From Spirochaetia bacterium (GTDB lineage: Bacteria > Spirochaetota > Spirochaetia > UBA9216): a stretch of DNA of 64,000 nucleotides. A model generated the notes under the pieces. That model did no database searches and was not told the origin of the DNA. It saw only the letters and a list, made by a program, of their open reading frames with translations. The stretch is taken from positions 864,001 through 928,000 of the forward strand of contig CAXXYH010000004.1 in NCBI GenBank assembly GCA_963677925.2, given 5' to 3'. The position numbers and the translations under genes are program-made. Of this stretch, positions 1-30,350 are shown one piece after another (positions within the stretch are counted from its first letter, which is position 1; every line of letters begins with the position of its first letter).

Positions 1-219
1 AATCATGATTTACGTGTTGAAGAAGCTGTGGCCAGGGCTGGTTATAAATATGCATGTACAACCGAAGAAGGGGTAAATGATAACGGAACTAAACGCTTTC
101 GACTGCTTCGTCTTCCTGTAACTATGCATAGAACAATGTTAGAGAATCACTTTGATATTCTAGGTTTTAGAGCTGAGATTTGTCGTGTTAGATCGTTTCT
201 GCGACTGGGGGTAAAGTAG
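1..219 (+). CDS. Polysaccharide deacetylase (NodB-like), C-terminal part, truncated by window edge
   Basis: Frame is open from base 1: ...VEEAVARAGYKYACTTEEGVN...FRLLRLPV matches the 'AGY..A.TT..G.N....L.R' end of polysaccharide deacetylases; glycan-locus context. Confidence 0.7.
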   Translation, partial: NHDLRVEEAVARAGYKYACTTEEGVNDNGTKRFRLLRLPVTMHRTMLENHFDILGFRAEICRVRSFLRLGVK

Positions 220-226
220 GCATATT

Positions 227-1678
227 ATGGGTGATAATAACACAGAAAAGAACAAAGAATTATCATTAAAGGAACGCGTCCTGAGAGGCTCTGCATTGAC
301 CTTGTTTGGGTTTGGGTTTAGCAGAGCTCTACGATTAGGTAATCATCTCATTTTAGCCTGGCTTCTTGCACCTGAAATCTTTGGTCTGATGGCATTAGTC
401 AAGGTTTTTATGCAGGGACTGGGAATGTTTACGGATATAGGCATTGGTCCAAGTATAATACAAAGCAAACGAGGTCACGATATAACTTTTCTAAATACAG
501 CCTGGAGTATCCAGGTTTTACGTGGAGCAGGATTGTGGTTAATTACATGTATTTTAGCTTGGCCATTTTCATTGTTCTATGGGAAGAATGATCCTGCGGC
601 TTCTCAGCTTGTTTATTTACTTCCAGTTTCTGGCCTTTCGGTACTTATCGGCGGATTCAAACATCCTGTTATGTACACTTTAGAAAAAGAATTAAAAATC
701 GGTAAGATAACAATAATTCAAATTGTGTCTCAACTGGTTTCACTGGCAACTATAATAATTTGGGCTTTGATAAAACCGTCAATATGGGCTTTGATCGCGG
801 GAAGTATAGTTTCGGCATTTTTTAATGTTATTATCAGTCATACAATAATTGCAAAACATAGAGTTCGCTTTCAAATTGAAAAAGAGTTCCTCGGTGAAAT
901 TATTTCATTTGGAAGATGGATTATGCTAAGCACAGCATTTACATTTTTATCAAATAATATGGATAAACTGATTTTAGGAAAAGTCTTAAGTTTAAAAGAA
1001 TTGGGTATTTATGGTATTGCAACTACATTAACAAAAATGGCACTTGATATAGCTACTCGTCTTGGTTCTTCAATTATGTATCCAGTATATTCAAAATTTC
1101 AGGATGATACTAAAAAGTTAATGTCAATTGCATTAAAATCTAGAGATATTGTGTTGTGGATAGGTTTTACTGTCAGTGTAGCTATGGCTGTTGGTTCTCC
1201 CTTATTTTTTCAAACTCTTTGGGATGTCAGATATCAATATGCAGGAGTATTGGCTCAGTGGATGATTATACTTATGTGGACCCGAATTTTGCTTTATACT
1301 ATGAGTCGTATACCCTTATCCTTAGGTAATTCAAAGTCGTTGTTCATTTCAAATGTAATTCAGACTATGGGAATTTTTATTGCTGCAGGCATATATCAGT
1401 TTGCTGGATTGCCGGGATTTATAGTTGGTTTAGCAATTGGTCCCATTGCAGCACACGTCTATCTCACTATGATTTTACCTGTTATGAGAAAGGAGATGTT
1501 AATACAAAGCTCTGTTTTTTCTGTTCTGACTTTAATTGCCGGTGGTGCTATGGTATTTTTTAATTCCTGGTTAGAGACAAATAGTTCAGAGCCTGTTTGG
1601 TTTGTTGTAGTTATTTCCATGGTAATACTAATCTGTTTAATCTCGTTATTAACAGTTTATCGAAAAATTAAACGTTAA
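227..1678 (+). CDS. Oligosaccharide flippase (Wzx/PST, MOP family)
   Basis: 483 aa, about 12 hydrophobic segments, 'LAWLLAPEIFGL...DIGIGPSIIQ' and 'DKLILGKVL...LGIY' PST motifs. Confidence 0.88.
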   Translation: MGDNNTEKNKELSLKERVLRGSALTLFGFGFSRALRLGNHLILAWLLAPEIFGLMALVKVFMQGLGMFTDIGIGPSIIQSKRGHDITFLNTAWSIQVLRGAGLWLITCILAWPFSLFYGKNDPAASQLVYLLPVSGLSVLIGGFKHPVMYTLEKELKIGKITIIQIVSQLVSLATIIIWALIKPSIWALIAGSIVSAFFNVIISHTIIAKHRVRFQIEKEFLGEIISFGRWIMLSTAFTFLSNNMDKLILGKVLSLKELGIYGIATTLTKMALDIATRLGSSIMYPVYSKFQDDTKKLMSIALKSRDIVLWIGFTVSVAMAVGSPLFFQTLWDVRYQYAGVLAQWMIILMWTRILLYTMSRIPLSLGNSKSLFISNVIQTMGIFIAAGIYQFAGLPGFIVGLAIGPIAAHVYLTMILPVMRKEMLIQSSVFSVLTLIAGGAMVFFNSWLETNSSEPVWFVVVISMVILICLISLLTVYRKIKR

Positions 1679-1785
1679 AGTGTTTTTAAATCTGTAGCAG
1701 AGGATTAGATTAATAAAGTTTTTCTTCTTTCAACTAATAATTAGATATAAAATGTTAACTAATCGAAAAATTAATAGGAACTTGT

Positions 1786-3072
1786 ATGAAGGCAAATGAA
1801 AAAAAGATATTAAAACTTCCTTACAGAAAGGAAACTACTGAGTTGTTGATTCCTGCAGAAGTAGATTTATATATTTGCGAACCTAATGATATTGAATTTG
1901 TATTGGATGATAAAGTAATTATTGATAAAGCTCTTGAAATGCAATCAGGCTCATTATCATTTCTTAATTTTGTTAGAAACAAAACTGATAAAGATGAGTC
2001 AATACTCGTTATCGTTAATGATCAGACACGACCAACGCCTACTCGTGTTGTTTTAAATTCCATAGCTGGCAGTTTGACAGATAGGAAAAATGTAACTTTT
2101 ATTATTGCGACAGGGGCTCACCGCAGACCAACAAAAGATGAGCTTGAAGACATTTTTGGAGATACATATGAATTCTTTTCAAATAATATTATTGTGCATG
2201 ACGCAAAGAGAAGTGAGCTGATGGCATATATTGGAACATCAGCATCAGGTACCGAATTGTATATAAATAAGCTGGCTTTGGATGCTGATAAAATAGTAGT
2301 GATAGGGTCTGTTGAACCTCACTATTTTGCTGGATATACTGGTGGTAGAAAAGGGATACTTCCAGGAATTGCCTCCTATAGAACTATTGAGCAAAATCAT
2401 AAACACGCACTATCAATAAATGCCAGAAGTCTGATTTTGGAAGGGAACCCGGTTCATGAAGATATGATTGATGCAATTCAACATTTAAATAAACCAATTT
2501 ATGCAATTATGACAGTTCTTGATAAAGATCAACATATCTATGCTGTCACAGCTGGCGATATTCATGATTCCTTCTATGCGGCAAAAAATGCTGCTGATGA
2601 AATTTTTGTAGTTGATATTAATGAAAAAGCGGATATTGTAATTACTGTAGCAAAAGATCCAATGGATATTGATCTTTATCAATCGCAAAAAGCGATAGAT
2701 AATGGAAAACTTGCATTGAAAAATGGAGGAATCCTGATATTGGTTTCATCTTGCCGTGATGGAATTGGTGACAATGCCTTTCTGGATCTTCTGTCATCAT
2801 GTAGCTCTCCTTTAGAGGTTATTGAAAAGATTAAAAATGAATATAAATTGGGATGGCATAAGGCTGGGAAGATGGCAGAGGCTAACCTAATAGGAGAAGT
2901 GTGGGCAGTAACTGAATTGCCGGATGATATTTTAGAAAGTATTTTTATAAAACCTTTTCCTAGTCTTCAAAATGCTTTATCTGAAGCATTAAAGATAAAA
3001 GGAGAAAATGCAAGTATTATCATATTGCCTGATGGATGTGTTACTATTCCTAGAGTAAAAGAATTGAGGTGA
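1786..3072 (+). CDS. larA: LarA-family nickel-pincer-nucleotide-dependent alpha-hydroxy-acid racemase/epimerase
   Basis: Motifs NDQTRPTP, ATGAHR, VHDA, EPHYFAGYTGGRKGILPG, QNH, DLYQSQKA retain the LarA catalytic Asp/Arg/His/Lys residues. Confidence 0.88.
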   Translation: MKANEKKILKLPYRKETTELLIPAEVDLYICEPNDIEFVLDDKVIIDKALEMQSGSLSFLNFVRNKTDKDESILVIVNDQTRPTPTRVVLNSIAGSLTDRKNVTFIIATGAHRRPTKDELEDIFGDTYEFFSNNIIVHDAKRSELMAYIGTSASGTELYINKLALDADKIVVIGSVEPHYFAGYTGGRKGILPGIASYRTIEQNHKHALSINARSLILEGNPVHEDMIDAIQHLNKPIYAIMTVLDKDQHIYAVTAGDIHDSFYAAKNAADEIFVVDINEKADIVITVAKDPMDIDLYQSQKAIDNGKLALKNGGILILVSSCRDGIGDNAFLDLLSSCSSPLEVIEKIKNEYKLGWHKAGKMAEANLIGEVWAVTELPDDILESIFIKPFPSLQNALSEALKIKGENASIIILPDGCVTIPRVKELR

Positions 3073-4289
3073 CGATAAAAATGAATCTTAAAGTAAGGAA
3101 AATTTTAGAAGAATCAATAGAAACACCGGCAGTTATATTGCCGCTTAGCTATAATGGTATCTTATTTACGAGAGCACTAAAATCAAAACATATACCAGTT
3201 ATAGGCATAATTAAATCAAAAAAGGATTGTTTCTATCACACTAACAGTTGTGCCAAGATTATAAGTTCGGATCTTTATGGCGAACATGCGTTAGCTAATC
3301 TAATTGAGGCAGGTAAACTTGCAAGGAAAAATCCCGCCTTGATTCCTACATCAGATGAAGGTGTTAAATTTATTCTTTCTAATCTCAAAGTACTTAAAAA
3401 ATATTACTTAATTAATATTCCTCAAGAATCAACTGCAAACCTGCTATTGGATAAGCAGAGTCTATATGCGTGGGGAAATGATAGATATCCATTCCCGAAA
3501 ACTTTGATTATTAAAACTGAACAAGAATTGAATGAATCTCTGGAAGACCTATTTTTCCCTGTAATAATAAAACCAAACTATAGGGACGCAAATTGGCCTG
3601 CAACTTTGGATAAGGCTGTGCTGGCTGATGATGCTCAGATAATGATTAAGGCTTTTCACAAGTTTATTCCTCATGCAGATGCTTGCCTTGTTTCAGAGTA
3701 TATACCAGGTGGTGATGAGAATATTGAAACCTGTCATGTTTTCTATGATGAAGGAAAACTCGTAAATTCATATACTGATCAAAAAATTAGACAGTATCCA
3801 CCTCTAACAGGAACAGGTTCATATATTTCTTCCTGCTATAATCCCGAAATCAAAAAAATTACTATTAATTTTTTTGATGATCATGATAATTATACCGGGG
3901 TAGGGGGAATAGAATTTAAGAAACATGATATTACTGGTGAATATAAAATAATAGAACCTTTTGTAGGTCGGCCAAGTAGTCATTTCTATACAGGTTTAGG
4001 GGAGGGTTTTAATTTCCCCTTTATTGTTTATTGTCAGATAGTCGGTAAAGAAATACCTAAATATGAACAATCATATAAAATTGTCAGCCAGTTAGATGAA
4101 GAATTTGAGCTTCAGGCTTGTAGAGAATATTTAAAATCAGGAAAAATGAGTATTGGTAAATATTTAAAAACAATTGTTACAACAGAATTATTTGTCAGGT
4201 TTTCAATAAAAGACCCATCTGTAGGTTTTGTATATTTTTTTCAGGTGATAAGTAGGTTATTAAGAAAACCATTTACAGGTATGAATTGA
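3069..4289 (+). CDS. ATP-grasp carboxylate-amine ligase (D-aspartate-ligase-like)
   Basis: LIPTSDE, FPVIIKP, SEYIPGGD, KIRQYP...GTGS, GIEFK motifs; overlaps the larA stop (GTGA). Confidence 0.8.
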   Translation: MTIKMNLKVRKILEESIETPAVILPLSYNGILFTRALKSKHIPVIGIIKSKKDCFYHTNSCAKIISSDLYGEHALANLIEAGKLARKNPALIPTSDEGVKFILSNLKVLKKYYLINIPQESTANLLLDKQSLYAWGNDRYPFPKTLIIKTEQELNESLEDLFFPVIIKPNYRDANWPATLDKAVLADDAQIMIKAFHKFIPHADACLVSEYIPGGDENIETCHVFYDEGKLVNSYTDQKIRQYPPLTGTGSYISSCYNPEIKKITINFFDDHDNYTGVGGIEFKKHDITGEYKIIEPFVGRPSSHFYTGLGEGFNFPFIVYCQIVGKEIPKYEQSYKIVSQLDEEFELQACREYLKSGKMSIGKYLKTIVTTELFVRFSIKDPSVGFVYFFQVISRLLRKPFTGMN

Positions 4290-4306
4290 TTTTAGGGGTA
4301 TATTAA

Positions 4307-5335
4307 TTGAATGCTGCATTGAACAAATTAGGTATAATCTTTATTGGAAGAAATGAAGGTGAAAGAATATTAAAAGCTGTAGAATCTTTCCCCGCGAGTT
4401 CTGCTTCTGTCATTTATGTAGATTCTGGTTCCACTGATGGAAGTGTTGATTTGATTATATCAAAAGGTATAAATGTTCATTCTTTAAGTCCTGAGAAACC
4501 CTTTACGGCTGCAAGAGGGCGAAAAGAGGGGGCTGAAATAATGTTAAAAGAATATCCAGATGTCAGATGGATCCAATTTATAGATGGCGATTGTGCATTA
4601 GATCCTTTATGGTGTGACATTGGAGTAGAATATCTGCAGAGTCATGATGAAGTTGGTATTGTCTGCGGTATCCTTGTAGAAGAAAAACCGGAATTGTCAC
4701 ATTTTAACAGAATGAATGCTTTGAGATGGAGTTCTGCTCCGATAGGCGAAATTGAGGCTTGCGGAGGTATCTTTCTGGCAAGACGAGAAGCCTATGAACA
4801 ATCCGGTGGTTTTAATGAAATTCTTCTGACCGGAGAGGAGGCTGAATTTTGTTTGAGGGTAAGAAGTTCTGGATATTTAATTATGCGTTTAAATAAGCGA
4901 ATGGCTATTCACGATTCAGATTTAATATCATTGAAGTCATGGTGGAAAAGAGCTATATGGGGTGGATATGGGGATGCCTTGCGGCATGTAACAATAAAGC
5001 ATAGTAATAATAATCCAGAGAAAAGAAAGATTAGAAGTAGTTTTATATGGGGATTATTTATGCCTTTTATCTTTTCGGTAGGTATACTGGGTAGTTTTTT
5101 TAATGAATTGTTAATTGTTTTACCTGCAATTGTTCTGATTTTATATATTCAGCTTTTATTAAGATTGATTATCAGAAACCTTAAGAACGGAAATGGCTAT
5201 AGAGACTCTTATATATATTCTTATTTGACGATAGTTAGGAAAGTACCTCATTCATTAGGTTATATCAAATTTTTTTTATATCCGAAAAATTTTAATAAAA
5301 GGCCTGACCCGCATAATAATAACAGATCTATTTAA
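4307..5335 (+). CDS. Glycosyltransferase family 2 with C-terminal membrane segments
   Basis: IGRNEG, YVDSGSTDGS, FTAARGR, QFIDGD, GGFNE..GEE motifs. Confidence 0.88.
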   Translation: MNAALNKLGIIFIGRNEGERILKAVESFPASSASVIYVDSGSTDGSVDLIISKGINVHSLSPEKPFTAARGRKEGAEIMLKEYPDVRWIQFIDGDCALDPLWCDIGVEYLQSHDEVGIVCGILVEEKPELSHFNRMNALRWSSAPIGEIEACGGIFLARREAYEQSGGFNEILLTGEEAEFCLRVRSSGYLIMRLNKRMAIHDSDLISLKSWWKRAIWGGYGDALRHVTIKHSNNNPEKRKIRSSFIWGLFMPFIFSVGILGSFFNELLIVLPAIVLILYIQLLLRLIIRNLKNGNGYRDSYIYSYLTIVRKVPHSLGYIKFFLYPKNFNKRPDPHNNNRSI

Positions 5336-5481
5336 AATTTTACTTACTGATACAAGAAAAATGAAATTGTGTCTAAATGTAGATAGACTTTTATTAAAGA
5401 TGAATATTTATCTTTGAATATTGATATATTTAGTGTGAATTAGTTAACGATGTATATAAAAAAAAAGATTGAGGTGTTGTT

Positions 5482-6375
5482 GTGGAAATTATAAAAGAAA
5501 TTAAAGTAAAAATAGGTTATTGTTATCATATAGTTTTAGGTAAAATATCACCTACTATAGCAAGTTATTCTCTCTATAAGAAGTATACAAATCGCCGTTT
5601 GAATTTAAGGAAACCTAAATATCTTGATGATTATTTAATGGGTATTAAGTTACATAATTATTCTACTAATGATTTAGTTGTGTTATGTTCAGATAAATAT
5701 CTTGTAAGAGAGTATATTTGTTCAAATGGATTAGAATATATTTTGAATGAATTGTATGCCGTGTATAATAATGTTGATTCTATCAATTGGGGGGAGTTGC
5801 CAATAGAATTTGTGATTAAATTAAATCATGGAAGTGGATTTAATTTAATTTGTAAAGATAGAGCGACTTTGGATATAGACAGTACAAAAAGAATATTAAA
5901 AAGGTGGTATAAAACAAAATTTGGTTTATATACTGTGGAACCTCATTATTTGAAGATTAAGAAAAAAATAATTGTTGAAAAATATCTGAAAGGTTCTGAA
6001 TACTGCTCCTCTCCAGATGACTATAAAATATTTTGTTTTTATGGAATACCAAAAATTATTCAAGTTTGTACTGAAAGAGATGCCGATGTTAAATATAAAT
6101 TATATGATACCTCATGGAAAGAAGTAGGTTATTTATTAGATGATTATAGGAGTAATAAAGATTTTTCTAAGCCTAAAGTCTTAACAGATATGTTAGATAT
6201 TGCGTGTAAATTATCTAATCCATTCCCATTTGTAAGAGTGGATCTGTTTCTGATGGAGGAAAAAATTATTTTTAGTGAATTAACATTTACACCATTTGCA
6301 TGTAGTTGTAGAATATTAAATTCTACTGGGCAGATTGAATTGGCTCGTGAATTTCAGAGTGAAAATTTAATTTAA
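5482..6375 (+). CDS. TupA-like ATP-grasp protein
   Basis: SDKYLVREY, FVIKLNHGSG, IIVEKYL, DYKIFCF, FVRVDLF, FSELTFTP motifs of the TupA ATP-grasp family. Confidence 0.88.
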   Translation: MEIIKEIKVKIGYCYHIVLGKISPTIASYSLYKKYTNRRLNLRKPKYLDDYLMGIKLHNYSTNDLVVLCSDKYLVREYICSNGLEYILNELYAVYNNVDSINWGELPIEFVIKLNHGSGFNLICKDRATLDIDSTKRILKRWYKTKFGLYTVEPHYLKIKKKIIVEKYLKGSEYCSSPDDYKIFCFYGIPKIIQVCTERDADVKYKLYDTSWKEVGYLLDDYRSNKDFSKPKVLTDMLDIACKLSNPFPFVRVDLFLMEEKIIFSELTFTPFACSCRILNSTGQIELAREFQSENLI

Positions 6376-6499
6376 AATGAGATTTTAATATATCTATAGA
6401 TTAATTAAAAATAAGGGGAAATAATATTAAGGAAAATACAAAAATTTTATAATAAATTAATTCTCTAAAACAATCCTATCAATAATATATTTCATTATC

Positions 6500-7703
6500 T
6501 GAACAGTGATCGTATTAACCTGGCAATTGCAAAGAATAGGTGGTCAAATTACCTCCGAAAGATATAATGATTTTACCACAAAACATTTATCAGGAAGATA
6601 AAATGGCCACCAACAAGAATGTAACACAGAAAGCAGCAAGAAGAAAGATGAGCATGTTAGAGCTCGCAGAAGATTTAGGAAATGTAAGCAAGGTATGTAA
6701 AATTATGGGTTATTCCCGCCAGCAGTTCTATGAGATTCGGAAGAAATATTAAACTTACGAATCTCAGGGATTAATCAACAGCTGACCAGGACAACGTAAT
6801 CCACATCCAAATCGAGTAGCACCTGAAATTGAAGTAGAAATTCTGGTTTATAGTTTGGAGTACACAACCCATGATTGTCTTAGAGTTTCTCAGCAGCTTG
6901 CCTTGAAAGGTGTGAACGCAAGTTAAGGCGGAGGCCGAGGAGTATGGATTAGGCATAAAATAGAAACTCGCCACCAGCGTTTTTTACGCTTGAAAGGAAA
7001 TTGATATATTAAAAATTCAAGCTTAATGATGACCAAATAAAACTACTTGAAAGAGTTAATCCTGAGATCAGAGAAAGATAAATCGAAACAAAACATACAG
7101 GTTATCTCGTTTTGATAGATACCTTTATGGATCGGACATCTGAAAGGAATCGGTAAAATATACTTACAGACAGTAATTGATTGTTATAGTCGACATGCAT
7201 TAGGAAGGCTGTATACAAATAAGCTTCCTGTGACAGCATTTCAGGTGATAAACAATGATGTTCTGCCTTTTTTCGAAGAACATAATGTGAAGGTTAAGAA
7301 TGTGCTGACCGACAATAGACATGAGTATTACGGAAGAGCGGGCTGTCATTCGTTCGAATTAGTTATTCAGTTTAAGGATATCGAGCACAGGATAACAAAG
7401 GTTCGCAGGCCACAGAGTAATGGATTTTTAAGTGGCTACATCGAACTTTACTGGATAAGTTTTTTTAGAATTAAAGGTCGTGAAAAATACTACGAATATT
7501 ATCTGAGATGCATTAAGATCTGGATAAGTTTTTGAAGTACTACAACAATGAGCGAGCACATCAAAGGTGCAATATGAAGAATAGAACACCCTCTCCGGTC
7601 ATCCTTGAGGAAATAGAAAAAGACGAGGATAATGATGGCACTGCCGCATAATGAAATTATATATTTTTCGAAGTGAGTGTCAAGGAAATACGCTAACTAA
7701 ACG
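6500..7703 (+). mobile_element. IS481-family insertion sequence, degraded (transposase pseudogene ~6602-7650)
   Basis: Fragments LELAEDLGNVSKVCKIMGYSRQQFYE, VLTDN, VRRPQSNG and YNNERAHQ with stops/frameshifts; imperfect terminal inverted repeats at ~6500-6525 and ~7678-7703. Confidence 0.82.
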
Positions 7704-7843
7704 AATTATCATAGGTGTACACTGTTTGGCTATATTGTTTTGATAAAATAAAAAACAGTCTCAAAATTTTGTGCTGTGATTAACCTATAAAAATATAGGT
7801 GAGTTTCAGCTTGCTGAAATAAATATTTTTAATTACAAACTGG

Positions 7844-7859
7844 ATTACAATATTGAAAT
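7844..7859 (+). promoter_or_regulatory. Putative enhancer (UAS) for a sigma54 activator, ATTACAATATTGAAAT
   Basis: Identical 16-mer at 30351 and near-identical copy at 34203, each upstream of a sigma54 promoter. Confidence 0.7.
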
Positions 7860-7962
7860 TAAACAAGTATATAGACACTTTCGAATAATAAAATGCTAAT
7901 TTGTACCTTGGTAATTCTTTTGTCAATAACAATTTAAATTAAAAATTTAGAACGTAGTAGTT

Positions 7963-7978
7963 TGGCATACAGATTGCA
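7963..7978 (+). promoter_or_regulatory. Sigma54 (-24/-12) promoter TGGCATACAGATTGCA
   Basis: Exact GG-N10-GC spacing, upstream of the AAGGAG RBS and the ATG at 8022. Confidence 0.8.
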
Positions 7979-8021
7979 TTATATTTATATATAATTTATT
8001 TGGATAGCAAGGAGTTTTTCG

Positions 8022-9773
8022 ATGAAGAAGCTTTTTATTTTGTTTATATGTATTATTTCTATTTTCCCGGTATATAGTGATAATACGTTACATGGGTTAA
8101 GATTGATTTTTACCGATACTGAGGATACTGAGGATACTGAGGATACTGAGGATACTGGTGAAGCCGTGGAATCAACAATTGATTTCTTTAATTTACCAAA
8201 AAATTCTGATGGGTGGACAGATTATGAAGCTCTATTACAGTATGGCTATACTGATTCAAGAGTTGTATTTGTTTCATCACTTTATGGTGATGACTCAACT
8301 GGTGAAATTTATAGTAAATCAGATCTTACTTTTGATGAATATGGTATGTTTCAACCTGCTGTATCGGTTGATATTAAACCGTTTTTGACTATAAAAGCAG
8401 CATATTCATTTATAAGAAATGGTTATCCCGATATCATGCTTCTTAGTAGGGGGGAGCAGTGGGAGGAACAATTTAATACCTTAAGCATAGGTAGGATGAA
8501 GTCAGGGCGGAGTAATGTTGAAAGGCATATAGTCAGTTCCTATGGAAGTGGTGATAGACCATCATTACATAGCACAACTGAAAAACAACTAGATATTTAT
8601 CAAGCATCATATTTTATTTTATCTGGAATACATTTTTTTGCTGATGACTGGAATGAATCGGGGCGAGGTCTTGATTTATATGGTGCATCTGTAGATACGT
8701 TATTTGAAGATTTGAGATTTGATAAACATTATAAAAATAAAATTAGTGATCCTGGATTGATGAATGTTGTAATTCGGCGTTGTATTTTTACAGATTATGC
8801 TGCTCATGACGGAGTTTTTTATGTTAACAAAGTTGAAAATATTTTTTTTGAAGAAAATATTTTTTATAAACCGAGGGATGAGAGAGATAGCACGATTTAT
8901 GGTAGAATATTTTACTTAAATCCAGGTGATGGAATTAACTTAAATCAACTTAAGAATCTAACTGCTAAAGGAAATATTCTTTTTCTTGCAGAACGCGGCG
9001 GTGCTGATGCAAGAGCTGGAGGAACTTTCAATAACAATTTGTTCATACAAGCTGGTTGTAGTATGGCTGCTAATGGCGGCAGTGGTGGTTCTGTGGTTTC
9101 AGGTGTTGTAAAAAATAATGTTTTTACTCAAGGTACTGATAACCTTGGAGTTGGAGCAGGCCTTTCGATAAAAAATGGTGTTGGTGTTGTGGTCGAAAAT
9201 AATATCTGGACAGATCCAGAAGGTATCCTGTCAGAGGCTAATGCAATAACGGTCTCAGGTGATAGTTCATATGATCTTTATGTAGCAAAAAATATTGAGA
9301 TAACTGGAAATGTTATATATGGGTATAAAGGTGAAAATGTGTATAACAGAGGAATATTTATTCCTTCAGGCCTTAGGGACATCGAGAACTTTTCAATACA
9401 TAATAATGAAATTCAAATGGTAACTGGAGCTTCATCTGTTCTCGCCGTACCCACTGATGTTTTGCCAGATATTTCATTCATGAATAATAAGTATTTTAGT
9501 ACTACGCCGGAGATTGAATGGTTTTATCAAGGCGATTTGCTGGATTGGGAAATATCCTCTGGTGAGACTGGTGCTTCTAAAGAACAGGTTGGTTATTATG
9601 GTGCATATAGAAATTTAAAAACTTATAATAACTCTCTTGGGGGGAGTGCAGATACTGAGGATTTTATGCTTGAAACATTGAAACAGTCAAGAAACCATTG
9701 GGATGAAGTGTATACTGCAGGAGCTGTTAATGATTATATCCGTGCTGGGTTTAACTTAGAATTGATTCAATAG
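8022..9773 (+). CDS. Secreted right-handed parallel beta-helix protein (pectin-lyase-like fold, possible glycan lyase/hydrolase or surface protein)
   Basis: Signal peptide MKKLFILF..., acidic linker, repeated 'xxENNIF/NNVF/GNVIY/NNEIQ' beta-helix rungs. Confidence 0.65.
   Translation: MKKLFILFICIISIFPVYSDNTLHGLRLIFTDTEDTEDTEDTEDTGEAVESTIDFFNLPKNSDGWTDYEALLQYGYTDSRVVFVSSLYGDDSTGEIYSKSDLTFDEYGMFQPAVSVDIKPFLTIKAAYSFIRNGYPDIMLLSRGEQWEEQFNTLSIGRMKSGRSNVERHIVSSYGSGDRPSLHSTTEKQLDIYQASYFILSGIHFFADDWNESGRGLDLYGASVDTLFEDLRFDKHYKNKISDPGLMNVVIRRCIFTDYAAHDGVFYVNKVENIFFEENIFYKPRDERDSTIYGRIFYLNPGDGINLNQLKNLTAKGNILFLAERGGADARAGGTFNNNLFIQAGCSMAANGGSGGSVVSGVVKNNVFTQGTDNLGVGAGLSIKNGVGVVVENNIWTDPEGILSEANAITVSGDSSYDLYVAKNIEITGNVIYGYKGENVYNRGIFIPSGLRDIENFSIHNNEIQMVTGASSVLAVPTDVLPDISFMNNKYFSTTPEIEWFYQGDLLDWEISSGETGASKEQVGYYGAYRNLKTYNNSLGGSADTEDFMLETLKQSRNHWDEVYTAGAVNDYIRAGFNLELIQ
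8115..8157 (+). repeat. In-frame 9-bp tandem repeat (GATACTGAG)x4 + GATACTG encoding (DTE)n
   Basis: Directly visible perfect tandem repeat. Confidence 0.95.
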
Positions 9774-9859
9774 AAGTTAAAATAGGTAACTATTTGCTTT
9801 GATTAGTATTTATGTGACGAATTATAATTGAATATAAACTTTCTGTAAATAAATTTAGA

Positions 9860-9893
9860 CACAAAACTCAGACGTTAGAGTTTGGGTTTTGTG
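9860..9893 (+). terminator. Stem-loop downstream of the beta-helix gene
   Basis: CACAAAACTCAGAC...GTTTGGGTTTTGTG imperfect inverted repeat with G-U pairs. Confidence 0.45.
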
Positions 9894-10089
9894 AAATAAA
9901 TAAGTTCTGATTAGGACTAATTATTGGAACTCAAATTTTTCAGATAGGGCGTGTTAATTATTTAGTATAAAAATCTCTGTATATGGTGCAAGAAAAATAG
10001 CAAAAACATCAAAAATCTATTGTAAATTATGGATGTGAATGCGCACTATCTTAGTTTAAAAGAGTATATTTTTTTCTATCTGCTTCCTT

Positions 10090-10400
10090 TTTAAAGATGT
10101 TCGCTTGATAATTCTTTGCAAAAAGAATACCAAGATTGAGTGTGTATGCAGACAAGATTAAGAGATAAGCGCAAGCCTCTTCGAATTACCTGTAAATAGT
10201 TAGGACGCTCGCCATGAAAAATTTATTAAGATTCAGGAAGAAATTTACTTTAGATAAAGAATTTCATGATAATATCGTATAAAAAGCGGTTGAAAGACGC
10301 TTTGGGCTATCTAAAAGAAAATATAGACTATGATTAAAAATTGAATTTGATGTAAGCGAGTGTGAGTAGTATACACTTTTTAATGCTATATTTGAAAAAA
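10090..10400 (+). pseudogene. Heavily decayed IS5-like DDE transposase relic
   Basis: Translated scraps 'VYADKI', 'LGRSP' and 'AVERRFGLSKRKY' resemble IS5 'ADKIY / LGRP / EGKFG..KRKY' motifs. Confidence 0.45.
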
Positions 10401-10928
10401 TTATTTAAGGAAATGACTGAAGTCATGAATACGTATAAGATAGAATCAAATAATATTGCTTAAAATACTTTTTGGGCAAGATATAGAGATTATTGGTATG
10501 GCTTTAAGCTATAAATGATTTTTTAATTATATATTTAAAAATCAAGATAATATTCATTATATTTATGTTAATATTGTTAGATAATATTAATAAAGATTTT
10601 TATATATTTGAAAATATTGTTTCTGTATTATATGTTCTTTCAAAATAACTTTCTTATGCTAAGAATAAGGGGGTGGTATTTTTTATTCCCTTAAAATATA
10701 AAGTTACAATTTTGATAATGATGCACAAGATAATTATTATAATTAAAATGATGCAAAAAAAGGGTATTAGAGACAAAGACTGAATCGGAATACTATAAAA
10801 ACATATTTATTGGATGATAAGAAGCGGTCTTGTGATGATATAGATAGTTGTTGATATTTAGATGGGAAGTTTTCTGTATGAGTATAACATTATAATCCAT
10901 GTTTTATGTAAATTAGAAAGGAATTAAA

Positions 10929-11789
10929 ATGAGTAATTTGATGAAAAGGTTAGATATGCCTAAATCAGAATTTTTAGTTTTCTCTTCAATGGGAGATAGA
11001 GCAAATATAAAATATTGGCTAAAAGGTAATAGGAATTTTGATTTATGGGTTTGTTATTATGGTGATGATGGAAATAAATATATTGACTCTTCTGATTATT
11101 ATTTTAAAAGAAAGGGTGGAAAGTTTCCTAATTTGCATTATGTATATAATAACTGGAAGAATGAAATTGATTTTTATAAAGCCGTTTTTGTTATAGATGA
11201 TGATGTTATTCTTAATGGAACTAAGATTACCAATTTATTTAATATTTTATTTGACTACAAATTGTGGTTGATTCAACCAGCTTTCAATCCTCTTGGTAAA
11301 GTTAGTCATTATCTAACAATGGTTAAACCTTATACTAAGTTTAGGTATACCAATTTTGTTGAAGTTACTTGTCCTCTATTTTTAAAAAGTAAACTTGATG
11401 AATTTATGAATGTATATGATCCAGTGCTAGTTGGATGGGGCGTTGACCATTGGTTTATAAACAATTTAGGATCTGAAATAGCCAATAAAGTAGCAGTTAT
11501 TGATGAGATAACATGTATCAATCCTTTTGATTTCACAAAAAATAGTATTAATTTTCGTGGGAAAAGAGAAATCGATACATTGCAGAGTAAAAGCAAAAGA
11601 GTTGAGGTTTGGAAGGGTGTTAAAGCTAAATATAATATTAATGATATAAAAATAAAAGAAATAGGATATGAGCGTTTGTCTTTAAATTTGTATAATTTAA
11701 TAAATATTTTTTATTATTCTCTTCTTATTCTTTGTAAGTTAATCGCACGGAGAATTAGATCGACTTTTATCTATAAAAAAAGAAGATAA
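10929..11789 (+). CDS. DUF707-like putative glycosyltransferase
   Basis: FDLWVCYYGD, DDD, QPA, TNFVEVTCPLF and GWGVD motifs of the DUF707 family. Confidence 0.72.
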   Translation: MSNLMKRLDMPKSEFLVFSSMGDRANIKYWLKGNRNFDLWVCYYGDDGNKYIDSSDYYFKRKGGKFPNLHYVYNNWKNEIDFYKAVFVIDDDVILNGTKITNLFNILFDYKLWLIQPAFNPLGKVSHYLTMVKPYTKFRYTNFVEVTCPLFLKSKLDEFMNVYDPVLVGWGVDHWFINNLGSEIANKVAVIDEITCINPFDFTKNSINFRGKREIDTLQSKSKRVEVWKGVKAKYNINDIKIKEIGYERLSLNLYNLINIFYYSLLILCKLIARRIRSTFIYKKRR

Positions 11790-11839
11790 ATATTATATAT
11801 TTATAAACAATTTTTTAATTTCAGATAAAACTATTATAG

Positions 11840-12288
11840 GGCTCGCAATCCCTAAAACTGTACCATGAGATAGATTAGTTTTCTGTCACAATATACAATA
11901 GAGACTGAAATGAAGAGATGGTTTGCAGATGAACAGATTATTAAAAACCTGAATGAATACCAATCTACTCAAAGAGTAGATTTACATCGAAAAGGATGTA
12001 CAAGCGTAGTCACTTCCCGAGGCTTAAAATAAAAAGTGCGAAATATTTTAGGCACTACCCAAAATCTGGGAATCCGACTACGAATTGTCATATCGAGAGT
12101 ATTAATGGGATTTTCAGAAATAAATTGTCTGAATACAATTTATTTTAATAGCATTAAAAAATGGGGTGTTGAATAAAATGAAGAACGCCCACAAGAACGA
12201 TTAAAATGGGTGGCACCTTACCAGTATGAAGCAATAATAGATAGGCTGAAAACTATCCTTGGTAGTGGTCAGAAAATGGAGTGAGGTC
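11840..12288 (+). mobile_element. IS3-family relic (internally deleted)
   Basis: orfA-like start MKRWFADEQIIKNLNE (11910), orfB-like end 'NEERPQERLKWVAPYQYE', terminus ...GGAGTGAGGTCA. Confidence 0.6.
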
Positions 12289-12450
12289 ACAATAATAAAC
12301 GTGCATATCAAGGTCGTAATTTGAAAAGTTGAACACCATTAAAAGTGTTTATATAAGAAATAAAAATACAAGATGGTGAAGGCGTTTTTTACGAATAATA
12401 TAACATTATAACTTTCTATGAAAGTGTCAAGGAAGTACTAAATCATTGCA
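12289..12450 (+). mobile_element. Second IS481 3'-end relic
   Basis: 'NNKRAYQGRNLKS*TP' and GTGTCAAGGAA end, homologous to 7540-7690. Confidence 0.6.
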
Positions 12451-12727
12451 GCATAATAAATTGATAGTCATCAGTTGGGTTAAAAAGACTCAAATGGAAA
12501 GTTAAGAATGCCTAAAAATCTTTGAGAACTACAGTGGATTTAAAAAAATATAAAATCTGTTTTGAATAAATGACAGAAATCATGAATAGGTATAAAATAA
12601 ATCAGACAGGGGAGTAAGAAATTAGCAAACCCTATATAGTTAGATTAACCAGAAAATCTTTAAGGAATATTTTTTATTCAAAAATTATAGAAGTGAAATC
12701 TGTAAAATAGTGGAGATTTAATAACAA

Positions 12728-13708
12728 ATGAAAGAATTAATTTCTATAGTCGTGCCAATTTTTAATGTCGAGTTGTATTTACCAAGATGTATTGATTCCT
12801 TGATTAATCAAACATATAAAAATATTGATTTAATCCTCGTTGATGATGGGTCTCCTGATCGTTGTGGTGAAATTTGTGAAAATTATCAATTTATAGACCA
12901 TAGAATACAAGTTATTCATAAAAAAAATGGGGGTCTTTCTGATGCTAGGAATGTAGGGATAAAAGCTGCAAGAGGTAATTATATCACATTTGTAGATAGT
13001 GATGACTGGGTCGTTCCGGATTTTATTGAATATCTCTATATGAATCTCAAGAAATTTGAAACGGATATCTCCATTTGTAATTTCTGTAAAACATCAACAT
13101 ATCCTTTTGAACCAGAATCCAATAAAAAAGAAATTGTTGAAGTTTTAGATAGTATTAGTGCTCTACGCCAACTAAACGGGAGGAATGGTGTAAATTTAGT
13201 AAGTGCTTGGGCTAAAATTTACAAGAAAGAGCTTTTTAATGACATACTATTTCCTATTGGGAAAATACATGAAGATGATTTTATATCATATAGAATCATT
13301 AGTAAAGCCAATACCATCTGTATAAGCAATAAGATAGGCTTATTGTATTGGCAACGAGAAGGCAGTATTACAGCTTCTAATGATATAGTAAGTAGAATAC
13401 ATAAATTGGAAGCATCAATTGAGAGACTCGATTTTTATTGTAGCTTGATGGATATAGGATTAATCTCACAAGGAGCAAGAAGTGTTTTTCATAATTTTAT
13501 TAAATATGAAAAATATCGGCAGGAAATGAAAATTAAAGATAAAACTTTCTCTAAAAAGTTGATACGCTTAAGAGTTAGGCAATCAAAGCAATCTATCTTT
13601 TTTAAGCTTTTTTATGAGTTTTATTTTATTACACCACACATAGGATACTTGATATATGAAATAATTATAAATCCGATCTTTTTAAAACCAAAATATAGAG
13701 GTAAATGA
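12728..13708 (+). CDS. Glycosyltransferase family 2 (EpsJ-like)
   Basis: ISIVVPIFN, VDDGSPD, NGGLSDARN, FVDSDD, HEDD. Confidence 0.92.
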   Translation: MKELISIVVPIFNVELYLPRCIDSLINQTYKNIDLILVDDGSPDRCGEICENYQFIDHRIQVIHKKNGGLSDARNVGIKAARGNYITFVDSDDWVVPDFIEYLYMNLKKFETDISICNFCKTSTYPFEPESNKKEIVEVLDSISALRQLNGRNGVNLVSAWAKIYKKELFNDILFPIGKIHEDDFISYRIISKANTICISNKIGLLYWQREGSITASNDIVSRIHKLEASIERLDFYCSLMDIGLISQGARSVFHNFIKYEKYRQEMKIKDKTFSKKLIRLRVRQSKQSIFFKLFYEFYFITPHIGYLIYEIIINPIFLKPKYRGK

Positions 13709-13845
13709 ACCCTCTTCTATTATTAGGGATTAAATTTAACTAATAAGATAGATGTTTAACGAAGTTATAGTCGAACTGAAAAAGAATAGGAATTGGCATT
13801 AAAAAAATAATATCAGAGGATATAAATCCTAATGGTGAGGTAAAT

Positions 13846-14853
13846 ATGAATATTATCAACATTGGAGTCTTTGCATATAATGAACAGGAAAACATTGCAA
13901 ATATAATTAACGATTTAGATCTTCAATCTGTAATGACAAACGGATTGTTCCAATTGAGTGTACAAGTTTTATGTAATGGTTGTACAGATAAAACTGTACC
14001 GATTGCGATAACTTCCGTAGAAAGATGTAAGAATATAAACAAGTTTACTGAGGTTAAAGATTATAAAGTTGGAAGTAAATCAATAACATGGAACAAATTT
14101 ATAAATTCTAATATTGAAGGTTCTGATTTTATAATCTGTATTGATGGAGATATTCGTATTCATGATCAAGATGCAATAATTAATTTGATCCATGATTTGG
14201 ATAATAGTAATTCTTATGCTTTGACTAGTAGACCTATGAAAAAATTAGATAAATTAAATAGAAAACCTTTATTGAAAGTTGCTACAAAAATAGCCGGAGC
14301 AGAACATGTTGATGGAAAAATCTGTGGGCAGTTTTATGCAGTAAAAACTGATAATATAAACAATATTCAATTACCAAATCCTTGCCTTGTTGAAGATGGT
14401 TTTTTAGCTGCTTGCTTGATAACAAGCTTATTTACACATGAAGGGGATCCTAAACTAATAAAAGCTAGTCAAAGTGTTTGTCATGAATTTGAAGTGCCTG
14501 GATCATTAAAAGAATTTTTTTATCATGATGTACGTATATTATTAGGGTGTGAGCTTAACGCAGCTTACTATTCTTTTTTATGGGAAGCCACAGATGTTAA
14601 AGAGAGAATTGAAATTTTAAATAGTTTTTCAAAATCGGATAAGATTAATGATTGTATAGAAGAACATTTAAAACATCCTGAAAGAAGTGCTTTGAAGAAA
14701 CAAAAATATTTCGATTTTCTTTTTAGAATAAGAAGCGAAAATATGCTGATTAAAATAGCAAAACTGCCAATCAGATTTTTGTATGTTGTCTATATAAATG
14801 CTGTTAAGGGAAGAGCGAAAAGGCTATTCATAGAACGTACCTTTTTTTGGTAG
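13846..14853 (+). CDS. Glycosyltransferase family 2
   Basis: FAYNE, NGCTDKT, IDGD, GQFYA, VEDG motifs. Confidence 0.8.
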   Translation: MNIINIGVFAYNEQENIANIINDLDLQSVMTNGLFQLSVQVLCNGCTDKTVPIAITSVERCKNINKFTEVKDYKVGSKSITWNKFINSNIEGSDFIICIDGDIRIHDQDAIINLIHDLDNSNSYALTSRPMKKLDKLNRKPLLKVATKIAGAEHVDGKICGQFYAVKTDNINNIQLPNPCLVEDGFLAACLITSLFTHEGDPKLIKASQSVCHEFEVPGSLKEFFYHDVRILLGCELNAAYYSFLWEATDVKERIEILNSFSKSDKINDCIEEHLKHPERSALKKQKYFDFLFRIRSENMLIKIAKLPIRFLYVVYINAVKGRAKRLFIERTFFW

Positions 14854-15482
14854 TGAGAATGGCTTGGTTTTCCTTAAATACTTAATGAGCTTATAAATTA
14901 AGGTAAATGTAAAATCATTCAAACATTTTAAAATAATAGAAATAGTCATTGTTGTATTATTTTTTCCAAAAAATATTTTATAATTGGAGGCTCTTATTCT
15001 AAAATATGAATGTGAATTATACAAATAGAAGAGCACTTATTGATTGTATCAATTTAATTAAGTTGTTAGATGTGCTATAAAGAGATCTTATATTCATTAC
15101 CTTATGAAGAAGATCGGTTCTGATGGGGTGAATGTTATAAAAGATCTGAGGATACAAAGATAAACAAGCAGATTAATTCAGTTGGAATATAGATTCCACA
15201 GCAAACCAAATTGAACTTAAAAAAACAAAACTAAGAAGTTTACTGTTTGAAAATAATTTTTATAGTATTTATTTCTTATGTTTATCTTGACGAAATGAAT
15301 TGTAGAATTTGTTCGAAAATGCTGTTAATCTTAGCTATTGTATAGTTTCAGTTTAATGTATTGAGCTTATCGGATTAGTTCATTATATTCAGAGGGATTC
15401 AAGCTATCAATAATCCGTGTTTTAGATATCTATGACAAATTGTAATACGTCAAATTATTAAACAAATTAGCTGAGGTCGCAA

Positions 15483-16388
15483 ATGGGAAAGATTGATGTA
15501 TCAATAATAATACCTTCATACAATTCTGAAGATGTACTAATAAACACATTAAAATCAATAGAAGAGCAAAAGACAAACAATGTTTTTGAAATAATTATTA
15601 TTGACTCATCACCGTCAGATAATGTTCAAAATGTATGTAAGAATAACAAAAGGATTCAGTTTATAAAGCTGAAGGAGAAAACCCTGCCTGGAATCGCCAG
15701 AAATATCGGTGCAGAACATGCAAAAGGAGAGGTTCTGATATTCTGTGATGCCGATGTATTACTACAGGAGGATGTAGTAACAAAAGTCTGGGAATTCTAC
15801 TCAAAAGGTCATAAGGCTTTTGGAGGAGCACTTATCCTTGCAGAAGGTTCTTCACTGCCAGTAGGATTGCTTGAACATTATTTCTATAATCATGAATCTC
15901 AAAAAGAGCGGCCTGTATCAAAGAGAAGTAATCTTAGTTCAGCCCTAATGATAGTGGATCGAACCTTATTTATTGAACAAGGCGGCTTTAAAAATATACC
16001 AAGAATGCAGGATACTGAATTTACTGAAAGAATATCTCGTAATGGAGCAGTTCTTATGTTTACTCCTGAAGTTGTCGGGTGTCAGCGACAAATCACTACC
16101 TGGAAAGGATTAAATCGAAAAGTATTTCTTTGTGGACACAATCTGTATTTTATTAGGTATAAGCAGAATATATCAACTAAGAAAAAAATCTTGTTGATAC
16201 TCGGGTTGCCGTTTCTATCCATTTTAAAAATGAGTAGAATAAACTTGCGGAATATAGTTTATACAACACCTTTTGGTCGTATTAAAGCCCTTTTTTGGAC
16301 ACCAGTTATGTATTATTTAGGTTTTATTTGGATGTCTGGATTTTACAAAGGTATTATCAGAAATAGAGGAATTAGTTTAAATAGATAA
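15483..16388 (+). CDS. Glycosyltransferase family 2
   Basis: VSIIIPSYN, IDSS, ARNIGA, FCDAD, GGF...QDTEF. Confidence 0.88.
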   Translation: MGKIDVSIIIPSYNSEDVLINTLKSIEEQKTNNVFEIIIIDSSPSDNVQNVCKNNKRIQFIKLKEKTLPGIARNIGAEHAKGEVLIFCDADVLLQEDVVTKVWEFYSKGHKAFGGALILAEGSSLPVGLLEHYFYNHESQKERPVSKRSNLSSALMIVDRTLFIEQGGFKNIPRMQDTEFTERISRNGAVLMFTPEVVGCQRQITTWKGLNRKVFLCGHNLYFIRYKQNISTKKKILLILGLPFLSILKMSRINLRNIVYTTPFGRIKALFWTPVMYYLGFIWMSGFYKGIIRNRGISLNR

Positions 16389-16507
16389 AAATATACAGAA
16401 ATAAAAATGTGATTAAACTTAATACGTGTGATAATATACTATGTTTAATAATGCATAATATTGTAAAATATAAATCTGTTAGAGGATATCATTAATAGAA
16501 CAATAAT

Positions 16508-22075: not shown

Positions 22076-22194
22076 ATTGGAAAAATTTAGACAGGATTAC
22101 CACCTGCTATTTTAAATTATTTGAATCTTTCTTAAAAACTTTGAATTTAGTGTATAATTATAAACAGTAAAAAAATTCAGGTGAAGGTAAAAAT

Positions 22195-25275: not shown

Positions 25276-25287
25276 AGGAGCAGTCGT

Positions 25288-29253: not shown

Positions 29254-29877
29254 TTAGAAAATAGAAGCAATGTCATTTATATAAATTGTAATCCCGATAC
29301 TAGTATTATTTCCAATTCCTGTATCAATGACAGTCTGATATTCCGGATCTGAAATAGTTGACTCGCCGTCAACTACTGTTTCGCTACTGGAATAAATAAA
29401 ACTAGCACTTAAACTGTATTCAGCGAAGGCTGATATAAAAGAATTAAAAAAGATTTCAATTCCAAACAAAGCCTCAGCACCGAACGGAATCTCGGAAAGT
29501 ATTACATAATTTATTTCATCAGTTATAGTGCTCTGTGTTATATAACCTCCGTTTATTGAAAAGCCCCAATAAGGGGAAAGCCGGCTGACATTTAAAAAAT
29601 GATTTTCATATGTGATTCCTGCAATTGAGGAAAAGGTATTAAAGTTATTTGAATAGTAGATATCTATAAGTGTGCGAAGCGATGACACCTCATTAAATCG
29701 ATATTTCATGCCTACCCCTCCTTGGTAGCTTTCAATATCAAGAAGAAGGTTTTCTGCATTAAAGATAAATCCTAATGTACCCTTATCTGGAATTGACTTC
29801 TCTTCATTTGCGAAACATAAATTTATTACAAATAAAAGAATAAATGTTGATATAAATATTACTTTTTTAAACATCAT
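29254..29877 (-). CDS. Putative outer-membrane beta-barrel protein (start moved to the ATG after AAGGAG)
   Basis: Signal peptide, alternating hydrophobic/Gly-rich strands (GVGMKYRF, GIEIFF..AFAEY, GITIY). Confidence 0.6.
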   Translation of the reverse strand: MMFKKVIFISTFILLFVINLCFANEEKSIPDKGTLGFIFNAENLLLDIESYQGGVGMKYRFNEVSSLRTLIDIYYSNNFNTFSSIAGITYENHFLNVSRLSPYWGFSINGGYITQSTITDEINYVILSEIPFGAEALFGIEIFFNSFISAFAEYSLSASFIYSSSETVVDGESTISDPEYQTVIDTGIGNNTSIGITIYINDIASIF

Positions 29878-29888
29878 AAACTCCTTGT

Positions 29889-30293: not shown

Positions 30294-30350
30294 TGCAATT
30301 AAACTTAACACTTTAAGAGTAAAACATCAATTTAGTGTGTCAATATTTGA

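Follow-up and report, generated by a model that had tools for sequence, protein, structure and literature searches.

In L. plantarum, the racemase LarA supplies the D-lactate that the ligase Ddl incorporates as an ester into the peptidoglycan precursor of the cell wall; the two genes lie apart, and LarB, LarC and LarE are encoded in the lar operon as well. Enterococcus faecium combines an aspartate racemase, a pyridoxal phosphate-independent enzyme of the Asp/Glu racemase type, with the D-aspartate ligase Aslfm, and the target is again peptidoglycan. Here, we analysed a stretch of 64,000 nucleotides from a Spirochaetia bacterium (assembly GCA_963677925.2, contig CAXXYH010000004.1, positions 864,001 to 928,000 of the forward strand), referred to below as the window. 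It carries a gene for a LarA homologue (LarAH; bases 1786-3072), followed on the same strand (+) by genes for a divergent ATP-grasp ligase (3081-4289) and a GT2 glycosyltransferase (4307-5335); these three genes, in this order, are called the trio. We propose that D-malate or a comparable hydroxy-diacid is produced by the racemase and linked as an amide to a glycan amine by the ligase, a reading to which we assign a probability of about 0.45. The proposal rests on gene order, predicted fold, residue conservation, the repeated occurrence of the trio and the domain fusions of the ligase family; which acid is used, that an amide is formed, what accepts it and, indeed, any activity at all are inferred from these.

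The LarA homologue and its paired ligase

The LarAH (428 aa) has the two-domain architecture of LarA, with matches to Lar_N (PF09861, 8.6e-53) and LarA_C (PF21113, 1.3e-18) that both exceed the Pfam gathering scores. Alignment to L. plantarum LarA (5HUQ) and to Mar2 (6D6Z) places D79, R82, H112, H179, K189, H205 and Y298/Q299/K302 of the window protein at the positions of LarA1 D72, R75, H108, H174, K184, H200 and Y294/Q295/K298. According to section 6 of PMC11770544, LarA1 H108 and H174 are the two catalytic histidines, and R75, K184 and H200 bind the cofactor. The catalytic and cofactor-binding columns are invariant in five aligned LarAHs, i.e. that of the window, two paralogues encoded in its own genome and two homologues that are also paired with a ligase. 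The claim that all motifs of the nickel-pincer nucleotide site are kept thus holds for every catalytic or cofactor residue checked in these alignments. Mar2 is also the top match by sequence among solved structures (3.3e-59), and the top NCBIfam model is that of the LarAH6 malate racemases, with 379.3 bits against a cut-off of 500. Since this score is under the equivalog cut-off, we call the LarAH malate-racemase-like and not a member of the equivalog family.

Substrate specificity is set by the residues at LarA1 F175, F176, W358 and T359, as laid out in section 6 of PMC11770544. The same source gives F, F, W and E/Q at these positions for lactate racemases and Y, F, H/Q and T for 2-hydroxyglutarate racemases; in malate racemases, the last two of the four are H/Q and K, and the lysine is proposed to hold the second carboxylate. 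The pocket of the window LarAH reads Y, F, H, K, and its 'LGWHKAG' aligns ungapped to 'LGAHKAA' of Mar2. In the two paired homologues from other genomes, a Spirochaetaceae locus (L011) and a Planctomycetota locus (L013), the last two positions are H, K and Q, K, respectively. The LarAH therefore fits a predicted nickel-pincer-dependent 2-hydroxy-acid racemase with a malate-type hydroxy-dicarboxylate pocket. Relatives are numerous (at least 4781 at E<=1e-60); the top 120 share 53-64% identity with the window protein, 119 of them carry the H,K motif, and the window LarAH falls in a separate, large Y,F/H,K clade.

The same genome has five Lar_N matches, and three of these are full-length LarAHs. 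One paralogue (L002, G000:C3:463318-466914) passes the cut-off of the LarAH6 model (548 against 500), and its gene overlaps that of an acylating aldehyde dehydrogenase. Another (L001, G000:C4:737870-741469) is nearest to the LarAH10 racemases of hydrophobic hydroxy acids and faces a gene for an ABC substrate-binding protein. In a genome of the same genus (G005), a candidate orthologue on G005:C9 was rejected, as it has only ~28% identity.

The junction between the LarAH and ligase genes reads ...gaggTGAcgataaaaATGaat.... The longest open reading frame (ORF) of the ligase begins at GTG 3069, a start that would overlap the LarAH stop by 4 bases, and the overlap of 4 bp reported in the original prediction depends on it. 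In all ten close ligase homologues, the first residue corresponds to ATG 3081, and the recorded protein has 402 aa, which makes the ATG 3081 start and a gap of 8 nt likely. Translational coupling by overlap is thus not supported; the tight linkage is real. Measured from ATG 3081, the LarAH and ligase genes are 8 nt apart, and 17 nt separate the ligase from the GT2. The LarAH-ligase gap is ~35 nt in the Spirochaetaceae locus and at least 116 nt in the Planctomycetota locus.

The ligase (402 aa) has no Pfam match even at E<=10. In NCBIfam, it is matched by LysX alone (E=0.0026, 16.9 bits) and by no curated family model, and comparison of its sequence with solved structures gave insignificant matches only (RimK and DdlB, E 2-3). 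An AlphaFold2 model, computed from an alignment of 34 sequences, reached a predicted local distance difference test score of 93.9 and a predicted template modelling (TM) score of 0.91. A Foldseek search with this model returned PurK, PurT, biotin carboxylase, the L-amino-acid ligase RizA, DdlB and PylC, with E values of 3e-15 to 1e-13 and TM scores of ~0.5-0.65. On the strength of this model, the predicted fold of the window ligase is that of the ATP-grasp enzymes. The identity first proposed for this second gene is therefore upheld by the predicted fold, and the family libraries contribute no match to it. The ten close relatives come from a word-indexed protein search and share 38-69% identity with the ligase; distant relatives, at 20-27% identity, carry Pfam ATP-grasp domains, among them PF02786, PF15632 and PF07478 at 22-27%. 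The ligase belongs to a loose group in which source labels read 'D-aspartate ligase' and 'ATP-grasp carboligase', the former on homologues of 22-43% identity. An exhaustive profile search collected 1253 cluster representatives of the family at E<=1e-30.

In ATP-grasp enzymes, the Glu/Asn pair of an E-x-N motif binds Mg. We take the Lys in 'VIIKP' of the ligase to be the ATP-binding Lys and 'SEYIPGG' to be the hinge E-x-I motif; both are kept, as are both Glu residues. The ligase itself reads E-P-F-V-G-R-P at the Mg site, its relatives read E-x-N-x-(G)-R-P, and F, C or S takes the place of the Asn in the close relatives. A regular-expression count found E-[PA]-x-x-G-R-P in 43 of the top 150 relatives, many of them still with Asn. 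The part of the family that is without the Asn of E-x-N has F, T, C or S instead and keeps the flanking G-R-P. Forty of the top 150 relatives are longer than 500 aa, and a Pfam scan of these revealed fusions to Polysacc_deac_1 (five), GT4 (two), GT2 (one), GNAT (two) and Acetyltransf_6 (one); several of the same 40 are fused to a second ATP-grasp. The deacetylase fusions support re-acylation of an amine freed on the glycan. Together with the glycosyltransferase and GNAT fusions, they lend partial backing to the earlier suggestion that the ligase attaches the acid to an amino sugar freed by a deacetylase.

A scan for ligase loci, with one genome per species, returned 20 loci, four of them close. 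These are loci of a Spirochaetaceae metagenome-assembled genome (MAG; L011), a Bacteroidetes MAG (L012), a Planctomycetota MAG (L013) and Rokubacteria (L014). The Spirochaetaceae locus has LarAH, ATP-grasp and GT2 in the same order as the window, at 59, 69 and 49% identity, and the Planctomycetota locus has the same trio order at 47, 56 and 47% identity. In the Bacteroidetes locus, the order is GNAT, ATP-grasp (63%) and GT2; there is no LarAH, and most of the glycan genes of the window are present at 36-53% identity. The Rokubacteria locus (ATP-grasp 37%) is truncated by the end of its contig; upstream lies an HbpS-like gene. A GT2 homologue (45-49%) lies directly downstream of the ATP-grasp gene in the first three loci; with the window counted, ligase and GT2 occur together in four of four loci whose ATP-grasp has at least 56% identity. 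Among the matches listed, a scan of metagenomes found one close locus (L032, 39%, no LarAH) and at least 45 distant loci without LarAH.

We placed the LarAH in a tree of 123 sequences, built by a quick tree search, and long branches lead to all three paired proteins. The LarAHs of the window and of the Spirochaetaceae locus group with the unpaired proteins P0044 and P0045 (support of 97 in the Shimodaira-Hasegawa-like approximate likelihood ratio test, SH-aLRT), and the Planctomycetota LarAH lies outside all 120 top hits. The paired LarAHs thus do not form one clade, which points to repeated recruitment, i.e. a pairing of LarAH and ligase that is rare yet would have arisen more than once. For the joining of one ligase-GT2 pair to LarAHs of different lineages, function is a better explanation than inheritance. 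The expectation that the pairing is conserved elsewhere is therefore borne out in part: the trio occurs in the glycan or envelope loci of the window, the Spirochaetaceae MAG and the Planctomycetota MAG, but it is rare, and 10 of the best 12 LarAH loci are unpaired.

Proposed mechanism and alternative explanations

In the mechanism that we propose, LarAH would act on a free 2-hydroxy-dicarboxylic acid and invert its C2; the reaction would most likely be that of L-malate to D-malate. The ATP-grasp enzyme would activate a carboxylate of this hydroxy acid as an acyl phosphate and join the activated acid by an amide bond to a free sugar amine of the nascent surface glycan, and the GT2 would act on the amide-bearing sugar or on the next one. 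The amine may be provided by either of the two deacetylases of the locus or by an oxidoreductase/aminotransferase pair; the candidates encoded there are two CE4 deacetylases, a GFO/IDH/MocA oxidoreductase and a DegT-type aminotransferase. Surface glycans of the proposed product class are described in the accessible text of PMC3210612. Pseudoalteromonas rubra has 2-acetamido-3-(N-malyl)amino-2,3-dideoxyglucuronic acid with L-malate, Vibrio vulnificus carries 4-D-malyl on a 3-amino sugar of that type, Shewanella algae has D-malic acid in its O-antigen, and Tenacibaculum (Flexibacter) maritimum has an amide-linked 2-hydroxyglutaryl bridge (PMC3210612). A racemase step that is optional would yield related glycans differing only in the configuration of malate, as reported.

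Several observations weigh against this reading. The LarAH scores under the cut-offs of both NCBIfam malate-racemase models (379.3 against 500 for LarAH6 and 286.9 against 462 for LarAH5), and the clade of the window ligase has F at the Mg-binding Asn position of ATP-grasp enzymes. A fusion to a LarA domain occurs in none of the 40 long ligase relatives among the top 150, and none of the 61 distant-ligase loci among the matches listed (16 from genomes and 45 from metagenomes) has a LarAH match. The pairing was found in three of the six loci whose ATP-grasp has at least 37% identity, with one of the unpaired ones (L014) stopping at a contig end. When 401 genomes of the class were searched with P0044, two of the best 12 LarAH loci showed the pairing, namely the window and a contig equal to the Spirochaetaceae locus. 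P0044 (genome G230), the nearest unpaired LarAH, lies among unrelated genes with no ligase. In both spirochaete loci, the trio is near polyketide synthase (PKS) and nonribosomal peptide synthetase (NRPS) genes, so that the acceptor need not be a sugar. The genes for making the cofactor are a further point on this side. The genome is 99.63% complete in 4 contigs, and a genome-wide search gave no match to LarC (PF01969, TIGR00299); the best LarE match reached 32.1 bits against a cut-off of 150 (TIGR00268) and the best LarB match 38.7 against 175 (NF033503). The window was correctly said to contain no larB, larC or larE. The search for these genes elsewhere in the genome found LarC absent and LarB and LarE far under their cut-offs, an outcome that the original prediction had itself named as one that would refute it. 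Of the proposal that LarAH makes a D-hydroxy acid (lactyl, glyceryl or malyl) for the ligase, the pocket, which by the published rule fits the malate type, thus speaks in favour and the absence of larBCE from the genome speaks against.

In this host, the LarAH could work only with a nickel-pincer cofactor from a source other than LarB, LarC and LarE. We examined a sample of 151 genomes, taken evenly from the class, in which a strong LarAH was defined by E<=1e-30. LarAH was found in 70 genomes and LarC in 47; 35 genomes had both, 35 had LarAH only and 12 had LarC only. In five single-contig genomes with LarAH but no LarC, no LarE or LarB match exceeds the cut-offs either, and one of them has 6 LarAHs at E<=1e-30. 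As 35 of 70 LarAH genomes are without LarC, the missing LarBCE is a class-wide puzzle and not decisive against this particular LarAH. In their accessible text, three papers treat LarBCE without LarA and not the reverse (PMC11796402, PMC13524815, PMC7583248). LarC and LarE are present in the genomes of the Spirochaetaceae and Planctomycetota loci, and neither was matched in the genome of the Bacteroidetes locus. The Bacteroidetes locus is without LarAH and its genome without LarC and LarE, whereas the other two have both, and this fits a racemase that serves as an optional step setting the stereochemistry.

Among the alternatives, the working unit could be the ATP-grasp and the GT2, coupling another carboxylate such as an amino acid or an L-hydroxy acid from metabolism, and the LarAH would then have a role of its own and be only loosely tied to its neighbours. 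The constancy of ATP-grasp and GT2 in four of four close loci, with a GNAT in the place of the LarAH in the Bacteroidetes locus, would agree with this, as would the hundreds of LarAHs in the Y,F/H,K clade that share 53-61% identity, against about ten close ligase relatives in the word-indexed search. Ten of the best 12 LarAH loci from the class search are without the ligase, and no LarA fusions were seen. However, the LarAH lies directly upstream of the ligase in the window, the Spirochaetaceae locus and the Planctomycetota locus, yet these LarAHs are not mutual closest relatives; a chance adjacency is unlikely to arise twice, and the window LarAH is part of a single-strand operon with a gap of 8 nt. 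We therefore consider a separate role of the LarAH unlikely. The LarAH might also be an inactive passenger in this host: the module would have been acquired by horizontal transfer out of a cofactor-producing donor, and the ligase would at present rely on the enantiomer already at hand. LarB, LarC and LarE were not found in the genome, the ligase was found in one of 11 genomes of the family, namely that of the window, and the same-genus genome G005 has no LarAH above 37% identity; the locus is low in GC and carries an insertion sequence (IS) fragment, and the Bacteroidetes locus manages without a LarAH. All of this would be expected of a passenger, but the LarAH has an uninterrupted reading frame and has lost none of the catalytic and cofactor residues checked. 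Moreover, the genome retains two more full-length LarAHs, one of them over the malate-racemase cut-off (548 against 500). The class-wide sample bears on the same point, as its 35 of 70 LarAH genomes without LarC include closed ones with up to 6 LarAHs (E<=1e-30); retention on such a scale in LarC-less genomes argues that these enzymes work, and we regard an inactive LarAH as quite improbable.

The bond itself could be of another kind. D-Ala-D-lactate ligases are ATP-grasp enzymes in which D-lactate is the nucleophile, and the window ligase might likewise make an ester (depsi) bond, by activating the carboxylate of a glycan uronic acid or of an amino acid for attack by the 2-hydroxyl of the hydroxy acid. 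DdlB is among the Foldseek matches, and an amide-forming step could be left to the second, TupA-like ATP-grasp enzyme of the locus. The deacetylase fusions of the ligase family, however, point to an amine acceptor, and the malyl and hydroxyglutaryl glycan groups quoted in the accessible text of PMC3210612 are amide-linked, so that ester formation appears to us very unlikely.

The surrounding glycan locus

The genes of the window are all on the + strand up to 27 kb, and a single-strand run extends from a LuxR-type regulator upstream of the window to base 27264. This regulator is followed, on the same strand, by genes for a WecG-type transferase, a GFO/IDH/MocA oxidoreductase (top model UDP-GlcNAc 3-dehydrogenase, under its cut-off), an SDR epimerase, a GT4 and a CE4 deacetylase. 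Then, still upstream, come a GNAT, a GT2, a DegT-type aminotransferase, a Fem-like Acetyltransf_6 protein and a second CE4 polysaccharide deacetylase. The last of these has its 3' end in the window (1-219, +; full ORF of 323 aa at L031 13248-14219). It matches Polysacc_deac_1 at 3.8e-29, and its top NCBIfam model, the oligosaccharide deacetylase HfsH, stays under the cut-off; this gene is the upstream deacetylase to which the original prediction referred. Next to it lies a MOP/Wzx-type flippase (227-1678, +; Polysacc_synt_3, 3.4e-49), which is matched by NCBIfam models for MOP and O-glycosylation flippases under their cut-offs and has 46% identity to the flippases of the Bacteroidetes and Planctomycetota loci. 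The GT2 of the trio, downstream of LarAH and ligase, matches Glycos_transf_2 at 2.9e-10. Therefore, the placement of the LarAH between a wzx-type flippase and a GT2 in a glycan locus is borne out by Pfam. A flippase, at least five glycosyltransferases (GT2, GT4 and WecG types) and sugar-modifying enzymes are found on one strand, as in a Wzx-type glycan locus. As for a Wzy polymerase, two candidate membrane proteins of 583 and 447 aa have no family match, and no initiating phosphoglycosyltransferase was identified in the 30 kb examined.

A second, TupA-like ATP-grasp gene (5482-6375, +; ATPgrasp_TupA, 2.9e-41) begins 146 nt after the GT2. It has no homologue in L011-L014 at E<=1e-8 and so stands outside the conserved trio; its product may form another amide on this glycan, in a step of its own. 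Farther downstream lies a fragment of an IS481-family transposase (7230-7535, +), which matches transpos_IS481 in NCBIfam at 1.1e-11 over profile positions 174-231 of 284 only. The remainder of this low-GC region (8022-16388, +) encodes the 583-aa protein, a 286-aa protein and three GT2 or GT2-like proteins, and contains ORF-free gaps. The 583-aa protein found no family in the Pfam and NCBIfam searches and shares 30% identity with a 595-aa protein of the Bacteroidetes locus. The GC content is 0.314 in bases 1-16400 and 0.427 in bases 30000-64000. Two stretches within the glycan region (9774-10928 and 11790-12727), of ~1 kb each, have no ORF of 50 aa or more; together with the IS481 fragment, they suggest partial rearrangement or decay of the locus.

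The glycan genes are directly followed, on the same strand, by genes that Pfam assigns to a hybrid PKS (1855 aa, with an adenylation/FAAL-like domain, a ketosynthase, an acyltransferase, two acyl carrier protein matches and a thioesterase), an NRPS module of condensation, adenylation and thiolation domains (1026 aa) and an AsnB-like amidotransferase (16508-27264, +). A reading of the genes at 22195-27264 as SusC/SusD-like, and with it a Bacteroidota origin, was ruled out by these PKS, NRPS and AsnB assignments. In agreement with a spirochaete host, the listed relatives of the window HtpG (71-85% identity) bear spirochaetal source names throughout, mostly Spirochaetales, besides Spirochaeta, Sediminispirochaeta, Marispirochaeta and MAGs labelled Spirochaetes or Spirochaetota. 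The trio of the Spirochaetaceae locus is likewise adjoined by an NRPS module of the same domain order and a ketosynthase, with 35-47% identity to parts of the window PKS. Two small proteins without a Pfam match (217 and 140 aa; 29254-30311, - strand) have 35-40% identity to genes that lie between GT2 and NRPS in the Spirochaetaceae locus (5848-6889), and are thus part of what both spirochaete loci have in common. Elsewhere in the window (52654-53985, - strand), a 443-aa protein has a HipA-type N-terminal domain and is probably the kinase of a toxin-antitoxin pair.

Implications and comparison with described systems

If the proposal is true, the trio is a candidate pathway for amide-linked malyl or hydroxyglutaryl groups on surface sugars, for which the literature accessible to us yielded no biosynthetic genes. 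The LarA superfamily, which is mostly discussed as catabolic, would extend to glycan tailoring, and a function would be gained for a large ATP-grasp family not recognised by Pfam (1253 representatives at E<=1e-30). That half of the LarA genomes of the class (35 of 70) are without LarC points to sharing of the cofactor or to a pathway not yet recognised, which is testable. If the class-wide reading is true, as all five closed LarAH-only genomes are also without LarB and LarE, the cofactor or a precursor would be taken up from neighbours or made by a new biosynthetic route. The broadest claim joins these elements: a nickel-pincer enzyme would set the stereochemistry of a surface glycan in a host unable to make the cofactor by the only known route, the class would obtain the cofactor, or a late precursor of it, from neighbours or have an unrecognised route to it, and the trio would be the first proposed genetic route to D-malyl-type decorations of surface polysaccharides. 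As a whole, we hold this joint claim to be doubtful.

The logic of a racemase that feeds an ATP-grasp ligase for envelope polymers has precedent, and our literature search found no description of a nickel-pincer racemase combined with this ATP-grasp family and a GT2 in a glycan locus. Neither 'ATP-grasp' nor 'COG3919' appears in the accessible supplementary material of PMC7583248. Among the racemases, the closest systems are Mar1 and Mar2 (LarAH5 and LarAH6). The window LarAH shares with them the two-domain architecture, the catalytic and cofactor residues and the H and K at LarA1 W358/T359; unlike them, it is under both cut-offs, falls in a separate clade and is encoded in a glycan operon of a genome without LarBCE. 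Malic enzyme is among the gene neighbours that Table S1 of PMC7583248 lists for the Mar2 group, which suggests a role of that group in the use of malate. For the product, the malyl and 2-hydroxyglutaryl O-antigens described in the accessible text of PMC3210612 indicate that the proposed class exists, with D and L malate on 3-amino sugars. That text links no genes to these groups.

The L. plantarum system of LarA and Ddl resembles the proposed one in that a nickel-pincer racemase feeds a D-hydroxy acid to an ATP-grasp ligase for an envelope polymer. It differs in that the pocket of the window racemase is malate-like, the ligase is related by fold only and the genes are adjacent in a glycan locus. 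The Aslfm system of E. faecium likewise shares the logic of racemase and ATP-grasp, malate being the hydroxy analogue of aspartate, and the '4-D-malyl' linkage of O-antigens given in the accessible text of PMC3210612 mirrors activation of the beta-carboxyl. In contrast to that system, the window racemase is of the nickel-pincer type and the target is probably a glycan, and the window ligase has only 22-27% identity to proteins with the 'D-aspartate ligase' label, which appears as a source name on distant homologues. In the HS:2 capsule of Campylobacter jejuni, an amide is reportedly made by an ATP-grasp enzyme that activates the sugar carboxylate, to which an amine is added. An ATP-grasp enzyme would again decorate a surface polysaccharide there, and it resembles the TupA-like ATP-grasp of the window; the glucuronamide step itself is a topic of PMC11800379. 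For the ligase at 3081-4289, in contrast, we propose the reverse polarity.

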